Of a stretch of 58,865 nt of DNA, positions 9,942 through 49,860 are shown piece by piece. The notes under the pieces are model-generated. The model worked only from the letters and a program-made list of their open reading frames with translations. It was not told the DNA's origin and did not search any database. Each line of letters begins with the position of its first letter. Position 1 is the first letter of the stretch. This DNA is from Nanobdellota archaeon. GTDB lineage: Archaea; Nanobdellota; Nanobdellia; Woesearchaeales; GW2011-AR9. The DNA lies in NCBI GenBank assembly GCA_038046465.1, contig JBBSWB010000041.1:1-58865 (forward strand), given 5' to 3'. A program made the position numbers and the translations under genes.

Positions 9942-10082
9942 TGGACTTGGCGGGACTTTCGTGCAGCAAAATCTTTTTTGCTTGGTGGGCTTCAGCCCGC
10001 CGTACTTGCCTAGATTGCTGGCATTCGAACCCGCAGCCTTTCACATGCGAAGCGAACGCGATAGCCGTTTCGCCACAAGCCC
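9942..10082 (-). tRNA. tRNA-Ala (anticodon CGC) with a 68-nt intron in the T-loop (intron 9956..10023, position 59/60)
   Basis: Manual fold of the minus strand: GGGCTTG TG GCGA AACGGCTA TCGC G TTCGC TTCGCAT GTGAA AGGCT GCGGG TTCGAA [68 nt] T CCCGC CAAGTCC A. G3:U70 is present, and a helix-bulge-helix-bulge-helix motif sits at the junction. Confidence 0.85.
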
Positions 10083-38367: not shown

Positions 38368-38486
38368 GCCCCAGTAGCTTAGTGGCTATAGCACCTGACT
38401 TGTAGCCAACTATCTGCTATGTTTCCAACGAAATATAAGCATAGTAAGATATCAGGAGATCGGGAGTTCAACTCTCCCCTGGGGCT
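38368..38486 (+). tRNA. tRNA-Thr (anticodon TGT) with a canonical 46-nt intron at 37/38 (38405..38450)
   Basis: GCCCCAG TA GCTT AGTGGCTA TAGC A CCTGA CTTGTA [46 nt] A TCAGG AGATC GGGAG TTCAACT CTCCC CTGGGGC T. Central BHB helix CTTG/TAAG with 3-nt bulges. Confidence 0.9.
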
Positions 38487-42711: not shown

Positions 42712-44601
42712 ATGCCAGACATATTAAAAGAAATAATAAAAATCCTTCCTAAAGGCAAAATCTCTGATGCTGCTTTTGAAGGAGCAAACATTGTACTTTA
42801 TACTAAAGACCCAGAATATTTCATGGATAATAATGGCACCATTAGGGATGCCGTAAAAGAATTTAGAAAAAGAATTGAACTGCGTTCTGATCCGGCTTTG
42901 TGTTTAGAAGTCGAGAAAGCAGAAAAACTGTTAAAAGAACTTATTCCCGAAGAAGCGGGAGCTCAAGAATTTATCTTTGACCCGCCGCGCTCACAGGTTA
43001 TTATTCATGCCGATAAACCCGGATTAGTTATTGGAAAACAGGGAGAAATCTTAAGAGAAATACGTGCTAAAACTTTTTGGGTGCCGTTAATAAAACGCTT
43101 GCCTCCGATCAGATCAAAATTAATTGAAAGTATCCGTTCCGTTCTGTATGAACATGCTGATGAAAGAAAAAAGTTCCTGGATAAAACCGGACACCGGATT
43201 TATGACGGCTGGATTAGATCAAAAAAACACGAATGGGTTAGATTATCCTGTTTAGGTGCATCCCGGCAAGTTGGAAGAACCTGTTTCTTAATTCAAACTC
43301 CTGAATCACGAGTGTTAATTGATTGCGGTATTGACGCTAGCCAGGAAGGCACGGAAGCTTATCCTTTTTTAGATGCCCCTGAATTTAACATCAGCGAATT
43401 AGATGCAGTTATCGTTACTCACTCCCACTTAGATCATTCTGGTTTGATTCCTTACTTGTTTAAATTTGGATATACTGGACCAGTATATTGTACTCTTCCT
43501 ACTCGGGATGTTATGGCCCTGTTGCAATTAGATATGGTTAAAATTCAGCGCAGTGAAGGTAAAGAACCAATTTATACTAGTGAAGAAGTTCGACAAATGG
43601 TTTTACATACCATCTGCTTAGAGTATGAAGAAGTGACTGATATCACTCCTGATGTCCGCTTAACTTTTTATGGTGCGGGACACGTCATTGGAAGTTCCAT
43701 TGTGCATTTAAACATTGGAAATGGATTACATAATTTTGCTTATACTGGTGATTTAAAATATGCTCGAACTAATGTCTTAGAACCAGGTAATACTCAATTT
43801 CCCCGTCTGGAAACTTTAATGATTGAATCTACTTATGGTGGAAAAGAAAATGTTATGGCTGAAAAAGAAGCCGATGATTACATGATTAAAGTTATCCAAG
43901 AAACTTTTGCGCGGGGCGGGAAAGTATTGATGCCTGTATTAGGCTCAGGAAGAGCCCAGGAAGTAATGATTATTGTAGAAAGACTGATGCGGGAAAAATT
44001 AATCCCTGATGCGCCCGTATACCTTGATGGGATGTTATGGGACGTTACGGCTATTCATACCGCTTATCCAGAATATTTAAATCGAAACATTCGCGAACAG
44101 ATTTTCCATAAAGAAAATAATCCTTTCTTATCCGGAATATTCAAACAAGTTGGCTCTCCTAAAGAAAGAAAACAGATCATGTTAGAAGAAGGGTCTTGTT
44201 TAATCTTGGCAACTTCAGGAATGCTTACCGGCGGACCTTCCGTCGAATACCTTAAAGGATTGGGAGAAGGAAAAAAACATTCTTTGATCTTTAGCTGTTA
44301 TCAACCTCCCGGAAGTATGGGTTACCGCATTAGAAACGGAGAAAAAGAGATTATGGTCCGAGAAGAAGGTAAAAACCAGGTGCTTAAAATAAATATGGAA
44401 GTGCACAAAGTAGAAATTACCAACCACTCTGACCGAAAACAATTGATGAATTATGTAAAAAGATGTAATCCTCAGCCTAAAAAAGTCATTGTAGTGCACG
44501 GAGAAAGTTCAAGATGCTTAGATTTAGCTTCTTCGATACATAAGGTATACCGCATTGAAACGGTTGCTCCTAAAAACCTGGAAGTTATCAGGATTAAATA
44601 G
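42712..44601 (+). CDS. aCPSF1: KH-domain beta-CASP metallo-beta-lactamase ribonuclease
   Basis: N-terminal KH-like region, HSHLDHSG metallo-beta-lactamase motif and beta-CASP motifs; 629 aa, typical of archaeal CPSF1. Confidence 0.93.
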   Translation: MPDILKEIIKILPKGKISDAAFEGANIVLYTKDPEYFMDNNGTIRDAVKEFRKRIELRSDPALCLEVEKAEKLLKELIPEEAGAQEFIFDPPRSQVIIHADKPGLVIGKQGEILREIRAKTFWVPLIKRLPPIRSKLIESIRSVLYEHADERKKFLDKTGHRIYDGWIRSKKHEWVRLSCLGASRQVGRTCFLIQTPESRVLIDCGIDASQEGTEAYPFLDAPEFNISELDAVIVTHSHLDHSGLIPYLFKFGYTGPVYCTLPTRDVMALLQLDMVKIQRSEGKEPIYTSEEVRQMVLHTICLEYEEVTDITPDVRLTFYGAGHVIGSSIVHLNIGNGLHNFAYTGDLKYARTNVLEPGNTQFPRLETLMIESTYGGKENVMAEKEADDYMIKVIQETFARGGKVLMPVLGSGRAQEVMIIVERLMREKLIPDAPVYLDGMLWDVTAIHTAYPEYLNRNIREQIFHKENNPFLSGIFKQVGSPKERKQIMLEEGSCLILATSGMLTGGPSVEYLKGLGEGKKHSLIFSCYQPPGSMGYRIRNGEKEIMVREEGKNQVLKINMEVHKVEITNHSDRKQLMNYVKRCNPQPKKVIVVHGESSRCLDLASSIHKVYRIETVAPKNLEVIRIK

Positions 44602-44819: not shown

Positions 44820-44964
44820 GCCAGCGTCGCATAATTCGGTACTTTGCATAAGCAAAGGTTTACGCGAAGCGAAAAATTGCGCAGGTCTTGAAAACCTGTT
44901 CCTTCGGGAATTCTCGGTTCAAAGCCAGCAATCTAAATTGCTGATGAAATTCCGAGCGCTGGCG
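44820..44964 (+). tRNA. tRNA-Ser (anticodon TGA) with two introns: about 35 nt in the D-loop (about 44842..44876) and 27 nt in the T-loop at 59/60 (44924..44950)
   Basis: GCCAGCG TC GCA TAATTCGGTA [35] T TGC G CAGGT CTTGAAA ACCTG, long variable arm TTCC-TTCG-GGAA, then CTCGG TTCAAA [27] T CCGAG CGCTGGC G. Perfect hBHBh' at the T-loop junction. Confidence 0.8.
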
Positions 44965-48143: not shown

Positions 48144-48523
48144 ATGAAAAGGTGTTAAAAATGAAAAACAAAGGCGCATTTTGTGAAACTTATGGTATCA
48201 CTATAGAAAATTGTATCCTCGAATATTTGTTAGAAAATCAGGATTTAGATATTGCTATCGGCGATATGGCGAAAGAACTAGATGTAAGCAAACCAAAAGC
48301 ATACGAAGTAATCAAAGAGTTTGAAGAAAAGGAATATATTATTAAATCTAGAGTTGTTGGAAAAACCCAACTGTACAAATTGAATAAAACAAATATTAGA
48401 GTAAAAATCTTTTTGAGAAACTTTGATGAATGTTTGCAGCTAGTGATTGAAGAACATAGTAATAAAAGTTCTACCATCAGTGCTCCAATGAGTATCGGAG
48501 TGGCATCGGCAAGATCATTTTGA
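48140..48523 (+). CDS. Winged-helix DNA-binding protein (127 aa)
   Basis: IGDMAKELDVSKPKAYEVIKEFEEKEYIIKSRVVGKTQLYKLN is a wHTH pattern. Confidence 0.55.
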   Translation: MNEKVLKMKNKGAFCETYGITIENCILEYLLENQDLDIAIGDMAKELDVSKPKAYEVIKEFEEKEYIIKSRVVGKTQLYKLNKTNIRVKIFLRNFDECLQLVIEEHSNKSSTISAPMSIGVASARSF

Positions 48524-48530
48524 TTTCACA

Positions 48531-48548
48531 TTCACGCCAGCGTCGCAT
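48531..48548 (+). pseudogene. Orphan fragment of the tRNA-Ser 5' end (5-nt leader plus first 13 nt)
   Basis: TTCAC GCCAGCGTCGCAT is identical to 44815-44832 and 48595-48612, but no tRNA body follows. Confidence 0.6.
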
Positions 48549-48599
48549 CCACAGAGAAATAATTTCCCTGGGCGCGACTCAGCATTCACTCACGTTCAC

Positions 48600-48749
48600 G
48601 CCAGCGTCGCATAATCCGGTATTGCGGCAGTCTCGAACAGATCTTTACAATCGAAAGAAAACTGCTCCCTCTGGGATTCTCGGTTCAAACGAGAAACTGC
48701 GTTTCTTACCCAGAAAAACGCAGTTTTTCTGAATGTCCGAGCGCTGGCG
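48600..48749 (+). tRNA. tRNA-Ser (anticodon CGA) with two introns: 22 nt in the anticodon loop (about 48638..48659) and 46 nt in the T-loop at 59/60 (48690..48735)
   Basis: GCCAGCG TC GCA TAATCCGGTAT TGC G GCAGT CTCGAA [22] A ACTGC, variable arm TCCC-TCT-GGGA, then CTCGG TTCAAA [46] T CCGAG CGCTGGC G. A T-run follows. Confidence 0.8.
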
Positions 48750-48789
48750 CTTTTTATTTTTAAAAAAAAGCTAACCTTTCAAAATAAAG

Positions 48790-49860
48790 TTAAGAACACT
48801 TAAACCCTTCTCCTTCTAATAATCGTTTCTGCCAATTCCGTAAGCAGCTGCAGTCGTTGTTGAAAACGATTTGATTCATCTGCTCTTTATTGATGATCAA
48901 ATGGCCTTTTATTTTTAGTTTACCAGCAAGTTTGGCCTGCAATTCATACAATTTTTCAAATTGCTCTTTCTCTTCTACGGTGCTGTATTTTCTTTTGATT
49001 TTAACTAACTGAACTGGTTCTTGTTTTCCTTTTTCCACGGCTTCCTGAAATAATTTTGCTTTAATTCTAACAATAGGATGGACGCTGCGCACGAAACTCC
49101 AATTTATTGCCGGATTAACGGCAAATTCTTTTAATTTTTGCGTACTGATAACAAAATGAACGGGGCGGTCTACTTCTTGGGCTAACTGTTTGCGCAGAAA
49201 AAATAATTGCTTAAAGATACCTAATTGCTGTTCGGATAAGTCCCTTACTCCGCGGACATCCATAAATTCCTGTTCAGTATAAGTAAATTCAATATTCTCA
49301 ATCATCGCAAATTCTTCTATTGCCCAGGACAGGCGATCTTTTTCTTGCAATTCTTTCTTTAAAATTTCCCGCAGGGGCAATAAGTATAAAATATCCGTTA
49401 CCGCATAAGCTAACATGGCCGGAGAAATGGGGCGCTTGGTCCAATCAGCCATCTGAAATTTCTTTTCTTTGTGGATACTTAGATATTCTTCCAATAATGC
49501 GCCCAAGCCGATATTTTCTTTTCCTAATAATAAAGCAGCAATCTGGGTGTCAAAAATGTTTTTAGGGCGGCAGGAAAATTGTTCATACAAAATTCTGAAA
49601 TCAAAACCGACATCATGGAAGACTTTTTGAATACTTTTATTTTCCAAAACTTCAATAAGAGGCTTAATTTCTTTTAGAGTCAGCACATCCACAACCCAAT
49701 TTTCTATGCCGTTAGAAATCTGGATTAAAGTAATATAGGCTCCGTAATGATGTAAGTTGTTTTCACACTCTAAATCGACTGCTAAATCAGCAGAAAGCCC
49801 CCACTGTTTAGCTGCTTCCTCTAACTCAGTTGGAGTATTAATGTACGTAAAATGAGACAT
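48790..49860 (-). CDS. rnd: RNase D-like 3'-5' exoribonuclease (DEDDy domain plus HRDC-like domain)
   Basis: DLECEN, HDVGFDFRIL and ADWTKRP......YAVTDILYL exonuclease motifs. Confidence 0.8.
   Translation of the reverse strand: MSHFTYINTPTELEEAAKQWGLSADLAVDLECENNLHHYGAYITLIQISNGIENWVVDVLTLKEIKPLIEVLENKSIQKVFHDVGFDFRILYEQFSCRPKNIFDTQIAALLLGKENIGLGALLEEYLSIHKEKKFQMADWTKRPISPAMLAYAVTDILYLLPLREILKKELQEKDRLSWAIEEFAMIENIEFTYTEQEFMDVRGVRDLSEQQLGIFKQLFFLRKQLAQEVDRPVHFVISTQKLKEFAVNPAINWSFVRSVHPIVRIKAKLFQEAVEKGKQEPVQLVKIKRKYSTVEEKEQFEKLYELQAKLAGKLKIKGHLIINKEQMNQIVFNNDCSCLRNWQKRLLEGEGFKCS

Follow-up and report, generated by a model that had tools for sequence, protein, structure and literature searches.

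A predicted tRNA-Ser(CGA) gene with two endonuclease-type introns, at 37/38 and 59/60, in a Woesearchaeota-type DPANN archaeon

The plus strand of the window (the whole 58,865-nucleotide stretch that was analysed) very probably carries, at 48600-48749, a functional gene for tRNA-Ser(CGA), interrupted by two endonuclease-type introns, in a DPANN host of the Woesearchaeota type. This two-intron reading follows from the anatomy of the sequence, its predicted fold, the comparative presence or absence of both introns and the covariation of the exons. The letters at 48600-48749, read directly from the window, match their earlier description exactly. Removal of 48638-48659 (22 nt) and 48690-48735 (46 nt) leaves an 82-nt cloverleaf that ARAGORN identifies as tRNA-Ser(cga), in which a 7-nt anticodon loop and a 7-nt T loop are restored and all stems are intact. 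When the T-loop insertion alone is deleted, ARAGORN calls tRNA-Ser(cga) and marks the remaining insertion as a canonical intron, i(37,22), while the raw, unspliced DNA at the locus has no match with ARAGORN or with Rfam RF00005 when the window is scanned. Identity, strand, boundaries and the positions and lengths of both introns, as given in the first-pass annotation, are thereby backed by ARAGORN and by the orthologues described below. The features of the locus are the following.

48520..48732 (+): 70-aa open reading frame with a TTG start, a mechanical call overlapping the leader and the tRNA
48536..48583 (+): 5′ leader hairpin, opening with a copy (48536-48548) of tRNA nucleotides 1-13
48584..48599 (+): leader linker, unstructured and pyrimidine-rich, ...TTCACTCACGTTCAC, directly before tRNA +1
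48600..48637 (+): exon 1, with the acceptor 5′ strand GCCAGCG, the D arm, the anticodon stem 5′ strand and loop bases CTCGAA
48638..48659 (+): intron 1 (anticodon loop), 22 nt, canonical 37/38 site, relaxed motif
48660..48689 (+): exon 2, with A38, the anticodon stem 3′ strand ACTGC and the variable arm TCCCTCTGGGATT, then the T stem 5′ strand CTCGG and T-loop bases TTCAAA (54-59)
48690..48735 (+): intron 2 (T loop), 46 nt, 59/60 site, strict hBHBh′ motif
48736..48749 (+): exon 3, with T60, the T stem 3′ strand CCGAG, the acceptor 3′ strand CGCTGGC and the discriminator G
48750..48762 (+): T-rich tract CTTTTTATTTTTA, directly after the discriminator
48679-48683/48737-48741 (+): outer helix of the hBHBh′ motif of intron 2
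48684-48687/48730-48733 (+): central helix of the same motif
48688-48690 and 48734-48736 (+): its bulges, 3 nt each
48691-48704/48716-48729 (+): its inner helix, 14 bp

The gene reads GCCAGCG TC GCAT AATCCGGTA TTGC G GCAGT CTCGAA (22 nt) A ACTGC TCCCTCTGGGATT CTCGG TTCAAA (46 nt) T CCGAG CGCTGGC G, followed downstream by CTTTTTATTTTT; no CCA is encoded at its 3′ end. Archaeal tRNA-Ser is recognized by a long variable arm with a stem of its own, a discriminator G73 and a serine anticodon. These class II features are all present, as a 13-nt variable region (stem CCC/GGG), a G at 48749 and the anticodon CGA at 48634-48636. The T-rich tract that follows the discriminator is also found in the orthologues and probably acts as an archaeal transcription stop.

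The T-loop intron displays the clearer of the two motifs. The unconstrained minimum free energy fold of the 150-nt precursor is a cloverleaf whose T arm carries a textbook hBHBh′ motif, formed by the outer helix CUCGG/CCGAG, the central helix UUCA/UGAA, the bulges AAC and UGU and the 14-bp inner helix. The fold has an energy of -54 kcal/mol (z = -4.8) and none of 200 shuffled sequences folds as well, in agreement with the 46-nt T-loop intron, the TTCA/TGAA helix and the AAC/TGT bulges that had been proposed from the letters. If each bulge is cut past its second base, the exons join as exactly TTCAAA|T, a 7-nt T loop that places the intron at 59/60. When both strands of the window were scanned in full for strict BHB motifs, 3327 candidate introns resulted, of which intron 2 alone yields a new tRNA with ARAGORN; relaxed scans (79,394 and 289,299 candidates) added only an Ala gene and the already visible Thr gene.

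The anticodon-loop intron is of a different type. The 22-nt deletion fits four registers, from 34/35 to 37/38 (48635-48656 to 48638-48659), all of them leading to the loop CTCGAAA, which bears out the ambiguous junction noted at the outset. The canonical 37/38 register alone keeps the anticodon stem as outer helix (5/5 pairs), with a 3′ bulge AA|A; the other registers give an identical mature RNA but lose the outer helix, and the canonical register was retained. In this register the central helix has 2/4 pairs and the inner helix is absent, and the local fold around the intron is no better than that of shuffled sequences (z = -1.3). Intron 1 is thus a relaxed, hBH/BHL-like form. The closest orthologues contain introns of 13, 16 and 17 nt at 37/38, with motifs of 2-3 of 4 central pairs and the same ...AG-NR|A 3′ junction, so that the relaxed form appears as the norm in this clade rather than a defect. 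The TCGA-14 nt-TCGA hairpin, which the first-pass annotation had offered in place of a strict BHB, does exist; it fails as a splice motif, its geometry leaving an 11-nt anticodon loop that is incompatible with correct splicing.

The gene neighbourhood is in line with an archaeal host. The window has a GC content of about 36%, and the neighbouring gene at 48790..49860 (-) encodes an RNase D-like protein whose homologues belong to MAGs named Nanoarchaeota, Woesearchaeota or Nanoarchaeia; FttA/aCPSF1, TrmB-type regulators and an ATP-dependent DNA ligase are encoded near the locus. An identical RNase D protein is found on contigs from Hainich groundwater (well H41, 0.1 µm fraction). Judged from these genes, the host is an archaeon of the DPANN (Woesearchaeota-like) from the Hainich groundwater. 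At L001 and L002/L003, syntenic loci whose RNase D is 92% and 83% identical, respectively, a tRNA-Ser(CGA) gene occupies the same place. Relative to the window, the acceptor pair G7-C66 of L001 is changed to A-T and the T stem CTCGG/CCGAG to CCCGG/CCGGG, both compensatory, and the introns of L001 and L002 occupy the same two sites with sequences unrelated to those of the window. Synteny is gone past approximately 83% RNase D identity, and L004 has no tRNA at this position.

A wider comparison was assembled by scanning GTDB species genomes with a degenerate 5′-exon pattern, which retrieved 119 DNA stretches, all from DPANN MAGs, some of them under placeholder labels; together all loci and the window provide 123 tRNA-Ser-like 5′ exons. 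ARAGORN finds 76 of the 123 directly, as intronless genes or genes with an anticodon-loop intron only, while 39 need an intron of 17-90 nt at 59/60. All 39 have 3-nt bulges and give a spliced product that ARAGORN accepts as a tRNA. Pairing counts in this set are biased upward by its selection through ARAGORN and T-stem pairing: the outer helix is complete (5/5) in 38 of the 39 introns, the central helix has 4/4 pairs in 25 and 3/4 in 13, and the cloverleaf reaches 99.1% pairing over 59 distinct spliced sequences, slid controls giving 33-41%. Changes on both sides of a pair occur at 14 of 24 cloverleaf pairs in these 59 spliced DPANN tRNA-Ser sequences, and the covariation found in 21 or more intronless genes is independent of in-silico splicing. 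The 34 resolved Ser(CGA) genes divide into 13 without introns, 6 with an anticodon-loop intron only, 4 with a T-loop intron only and 11 with both. The spliced exons of the window equal those of L061 except for one D-loop base. The BHB is conserved between the T-arm intron of the window and its homologues in L119, L061 and L007, which together are 95.7% paired and show three double changes. The Rfam tRNA model detects the intronless orthologue L024 (51.2 bits) and misses every intron-bearing orthologue; on the intronless L097, where the gene adjoins a run of N, it does not report the Ser gene. A family covariance model (R1), applied to the whole window, matches only 48604-48701 (42.2 bits) and the Ser(TGA) gene at 44864-44964 (40.3 bits), the former match being partly circular because the model includes the spliced sequence of the window itself.

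Some loci of the comparison set show peculiarities of their own. On the minus strand of L074, from 6062 in reverse-complement coordinates, a truncated, intron-bearing 5′ part of tRNA-Ser(CGA) lies approximately 20 nt upstream of a complete intronless copy, an arrangement reminiscent of gene replacement or recombination, or of an att-like duplication. The anticodon region TCGGATCTCGAGACGAATCTCGAACTGGATTAAGAGCTAACCGA of Ser(CGA) in L002, L003 and L015, with the arm TCGGT CTCGAAA ACCGA, is mis-typed as Glu by ARAGORN; this arm seems to need two separate deletions, at about 30/31 and at 37/38, which would give the orthologue three introns. In Micrarchaeota, the anticodon-loop introns of tRNA-Ser(TGA), 40-42 nt long, share the core ATCAAGAGCTGATYAGTGATGC (L008, L035, L047, L071, L081, L090, L121 and others), where CUGA followed by GUGAUG resembles a D′/C′ (K-loop-like) box pair, which may point to introns that bind L7Ae or are related to C/D boxes.

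Upstream of the tRNA the window contains a structured leader. The repeat unit 48526-48548 is 22/23 identical to 48590-48612, placing an exact 13-nt copy of the tRNA 5′ end 64 nt upstream of the gene, and the 3′ strand of the leader (GCGAC...) is complementary to this copy. A covariance model of the leader (R2) matches the window at 48536-48599 with 64.4 bits, and the 15-nt tail of the linker is common to the Ser(TGA) gene of the window. Among the 123 loci, 22 carry an upstream copy of their own tRNA nucleotides 1-13, located 45-75 nt upstream in 19; in most of the 22 a hairpin comes next, then a strand complementary to roughly nucleotides 3-11. Examples include window 48526-48599, L092 1819-1880, L017 6190-6254, L024 4871-4932, L082 6703-6764 and L027 4182-4244. 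In Woesearchaeal genomes the leaders, which open with a copy of 13-14 nt, measure roughly 50-70 nt, with a linker of 15-20 nt, and can precede tRNA-Ser genes of all three UCN isoacceptors (CGA, TGA and GGA). Both copy and complement track the acceptor and D-arm variant of the genome (GCCAGCG, GCCAGCA, GCCAGGG or GCCACCG; TCGCA or TGGCA), and the leader hairpin is 80% paired against 31-49% in slid controls, with double changes in 10 of 16 pairs. The leader model matches only sites directly 5′ of tRNA-Ser genes and led to a new Ser(GGA) gene; its acceptor has the unusual sequence GCCACCG, and the leader copy shows the same letters. A loose leader pattern, in a metagenome scan, returned at least 120 matches; among the matches listed two are real leaders (L134 and L224) and the others arise by chance.

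The position of promoter-like elements differs between the two kinds of loci. Where a leader is present, a TATA-like box precedes the upstream copy by approximately 30 nt, and none occurs between copy and tRNA; in leaderless loci it lies approximately 30 nt before tRNA +1. These positions suggest that transcription probably starts at the upstream copy. Leaderless tRNA transcription is known for Nanoarchaeum, and a TATA-like box centred 26-35 nt before +1 in 47 of 104 leaderless tRNA-Ser loci among L005-L123 suggests (near-)leaderless transcription in many DPANN. On inspection the leader fitted neither a k-turn nor a C/D box RNA, nor a BHB through which an endonuclease would mature the 5′ end. 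It may act as a switch in folding or processing; alternatively it may be a decoy, since neutralised, that arose by 5′ duplication, or the trace of a small insertion at nucleotide 14, which could pair with and duplicate its target.

The upstream copy also invites the reading that the gene has three introns, its true 5′ exon being 48536-48548 and the remainder up to 48612 forming a third intron in the D arm. The exact 13-nt copy within the 23-nt repeat speaks for such an arrangement, as do the TATA-like boxes of related loci, which stand ahead of the upstream copy and in no case ahead of the tRNA itself. However, no BHB can be drawn, the two H segments being identical (TCGC/TCGC) rather than complementary, and the complement of the copy lies in the middle of the leader, separated from the presumed 3′ splice site by 17-25 nt and, in addition, the 13-nt copy. 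In L061 and L001, tRNA nucleotides 1-6 are missing from the upstream element, and in L107 the copy has G8 where the tRNA has U8, a near-universal tRNA base. A conserved unstructured linker precedes +1, moreover, as in ordinary RNase P substrates. A third intron is accordingly considered highly improbable. Less improbable, though still unlikely, is that the tRNA-Ser(CGA) gene is a decaying or non-functional pseudogene, in which the T-loop intron remains removable, the 22-nt insertion is mis-spliced and UCG is read by tRNA-Ser(UGA). The 2/4 pairs in the central helix of intron 1 are the lowest value among Woesearchaeal Ser(CGA) introns (tied with L027, L001 and L038), its shuffle-like local fold points the same way, and the TCGA-14-TCGA hairpin, if used, could trap the insertion with an 11-nt loop. 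A Ser(TGA) gene is present in the window and its product could read UCG by wobble, so that the tRNA-Ser(CGA) gene may be dispensable. In contrast, the spliced stems have all been kept and the exons are those of L061 save for the single D-loop base, the introns of the closest relatives are equally relaxed at 37/38 and end in the same 3′ junction, and the T-loop BHB is intact, as are terminator and leader.

The remaining reading assigns 48520..48732 to a 70-aa protein and regards the tRNA-like fold as coincidental. The frame is indeed open, as are all three forward frames at the locus because the region is GC-richer. Against a protein, the product is not on record as a called gene, and the frame and its length are not kept in the orthologues, whose introns vary in length and whose only common peptide is the translation of exon 1; the RNA evidence from splicing in silico, fold and covariation is overwhelming, which leaves this reading next to no credibility. 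Judged by these comparisons the 70-aa ORF is spurious and not a gene, as the first look at the sequence had it. The two-intron, functional tRNA-Ser(CGA) gene is the reading followed hereafter.

Three other tRNA genes were located in the window.

9942-10082 (-): tRNA-Ala(CGC), with a 68-nt 59/60 intron at 9956-10023 and a G3:U70 pair
44820-44964 (+): tRNA-Ser(TGA), with a 35-nt D-loop intron at 44842-44876 and a 27-nt 59/60 intron at 44924-44950
38368-38486: tRNA-Thr(TGT), with a 46-nt canonical intron only, at 38405-38450

The claim that three of the four tRNAs share a 59/60 intron therefore holds for Ala(CGC), Ser(TGA) and Ser(CGA), Thr(TGT) having only the canonical one. The motif of the tRNA-Ala intron comprises the central helix UUCG/CGAA and the bulges AAU and AGU; the ARAGORN call at 10011-10081 was rejected as a mis-fold that borrows the intron for its 3′ half, and Rfam scores it at 23.6 bits, below the gathering threshold. 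The tRNA-Ser(TGA) gene at 44820-44964 is missed by ARAGORN and Rfam, and surfaced in a two-deletion search after three BHB-guided scans had missed it owing to its two non-canonical introns. Its orthologue in a sister MAG (L017) is intronless, which argues for recent gain or loss. An FttA/aCPSF1-type termination factor (42712-44601, +) with KH, beta-CASP and RMMBL domains is encoded directly upstream of tRNA-Ser(TGA).

Several T-loop introns are related across different tRNA genes, an observation made on a handful of genes and not genome-wide. The T-loop intron of the window Ser(CGA) gene is identical at 45 of 46 positions to that of a Ser(GGA) gene in MAG GCA_964554235.1 (L119), while the Ser(CGA) gene of that MAG (L002) carries an unrelated 30-nt intron. 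The 'GCCAGCAATCTAGGCAAG...GGCGGGC...GCCCACC' family occupies 59/60 in the window Ala gene, in the Ser(CGA) genes of L001 and L099 and in a further tRNA upstream of L119, with a short form in the window Ser(TGA) gene; the same family, also written 'GCCAGCAAT...', spans Ala, Ser(TGA) and Ser(CGA) genes at that site. This sharing suggests intron transfer or gene conversion. A metagenome scan for the T-loop intron of the window Ser(CGA) gene gave 0 matches. The GGCGGGC/GCCCACC module also appears inside the anticodon-loop intron of L001, and L057 was counted with L001 and L099 among the T-loop introns compared to window 9956-10023 and 44924-44950.

Maturation of the tRNA-Ser(CGA) precursor can be envisaged along the archaeal pathway, which consists of endonuclease cleavage at the BHB bulges, exon joining by RtcB, 5′ trimming by RNase P and CCA addition (PMC4090602). 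The precursor would be transcribed with a structured leader of roughly 64 nt and end at the T tract. In both 3-nt bulges of the strict T-arm BHB, EndA would cut between the second and third nucleotides (AA|C and UG|U), releasing 46 nt at 59/60, and it would also cut the relaxed motif of the anticodon arm, releasing 22 nt at 37/38; the weak motif of intron 1 implies that its removal needs a broad-specificity endonuclease. An RtcB-type ligase would then join the three exons, RNase P would trim the leader and CCA would be added post-transcriptionally, the expected end product being a class II tRNA of 82 nt whose anticodon is CGA, whose variable arm has 13 nt and whose discriminator is G73. Transcription, cuts, ligation and leader removal are predicted steps, as are the enzymes presumed to perform them, none of which is encoded in the window; neither EndA nor RtcB was found among the ten ORFs scanned around the locus. 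RNP RNase P proteins have been reported from all archaeal genomes examined (PMC6380272), and DPANN alpha4 EndAs with an L3 insert are reported to go with disrupted tRNA genes (PMC5829648).

Three of the four tRNA genes of the window are missed or mis-called by ARAGORN or Rfam. With the Ser(CGA) gene invisible to both programs and the Ala gene mis-folded, tRNA complements of DPANN MAGs, and claims of completeness or of 'missing tRNA', will be wrong unless BHB-aware tools are used. Introns at 59/60 are common in DPANN tRNA-Ser genes (39/123 in the GTDB species genome sampling) and are gained and lost quickly, as illustrated by the two-intron Ser(TGA) gene of the window and its intronless sister-MAG orthologue; related introns in different tRNA genes bear on how archaeal tRNA introns spread. 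It is conceivable, though on balance doubtful, that the leader copying the tRNA 5′ end and the exchange of T-loop introns among different tRNA genes in closely related DPANN genomes are both new. The leader hairpin, if functional, would represent a new kind of pre-tRNA 5′ element, and the exchange, if true, would extend tRNA-intron transposition from Thermoproteales to mesophilic DPANN.

The two-intron layout itself is already known, 59/60 introns and multi-intron tRNAs having been published for DPANN (PMC3239211, PMC5829648) and for Thermoproteales. The 59/60 position is a listed non-canonical intron site (PMC4090602), and a survey of disrupted tRNA genes already took in one Woesearchaeota genome (PMC5829648). 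Relative to the canonical archaeal 37/38 BHB intron, represented in the window by tRNA-Thr(TGT), intron 1 is alike in its site and in the use of the anticodon stem as outer helix but has neither the inner helix nor the 4-bp central helix that belong to the canonical hBHBh′ form. In the Thermoproteales, up to three BHB introns per tRNA are described, at non-canonical sites including 59/60 (Sugahara 2008 and Fujishima 2010, as cited in PMC4033280 and PMC4090602), as is tRNA intron transposition, with similar introns across different tRNA genes (PMC4033280). Multi-intron tRNAs, the 59/60 site and intron sequences shared across tRNA genes are features in common, whereas the window host is a mesophilic, low-GC DPANN archaeon and not a hyperthermophilic crenarchaeon; its endonuclease is presumably not of the (alpha-beta)2 type. 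In ARMAN-2 (Micrarchaeota), pre-tRNA-Cys(GCA) has a 59/60 intron and pre-tRNA-Pro(GGG) has introns at 53/54 and 59/60, and the ARMAN-2 endonuclease cuts and splices the 59/60 intron of pre-tRNA-Cys(GCA) in vitro (Fujishima et al. 2011, PMC3239211). The epsilon2 endonuclease is known only from the ARMAN-2 group, other DPANN having alpha4 enzymes with an L3 loop (PMC5829648). The window gene resembles the ARMAN-2 genes in its DPANN host, in an intron at exactly 59/60, in several introns per tRNA and in the coexistence of strict and relaxed BHB motifs. In contrast, it belongs to a Woesearchaeota-type lineage, to another tRNA species and has other intron sequences; here it is the 59/60 intron that displays the strict hBHBh′ motif, and the intron at the canonical site that is relaxed.
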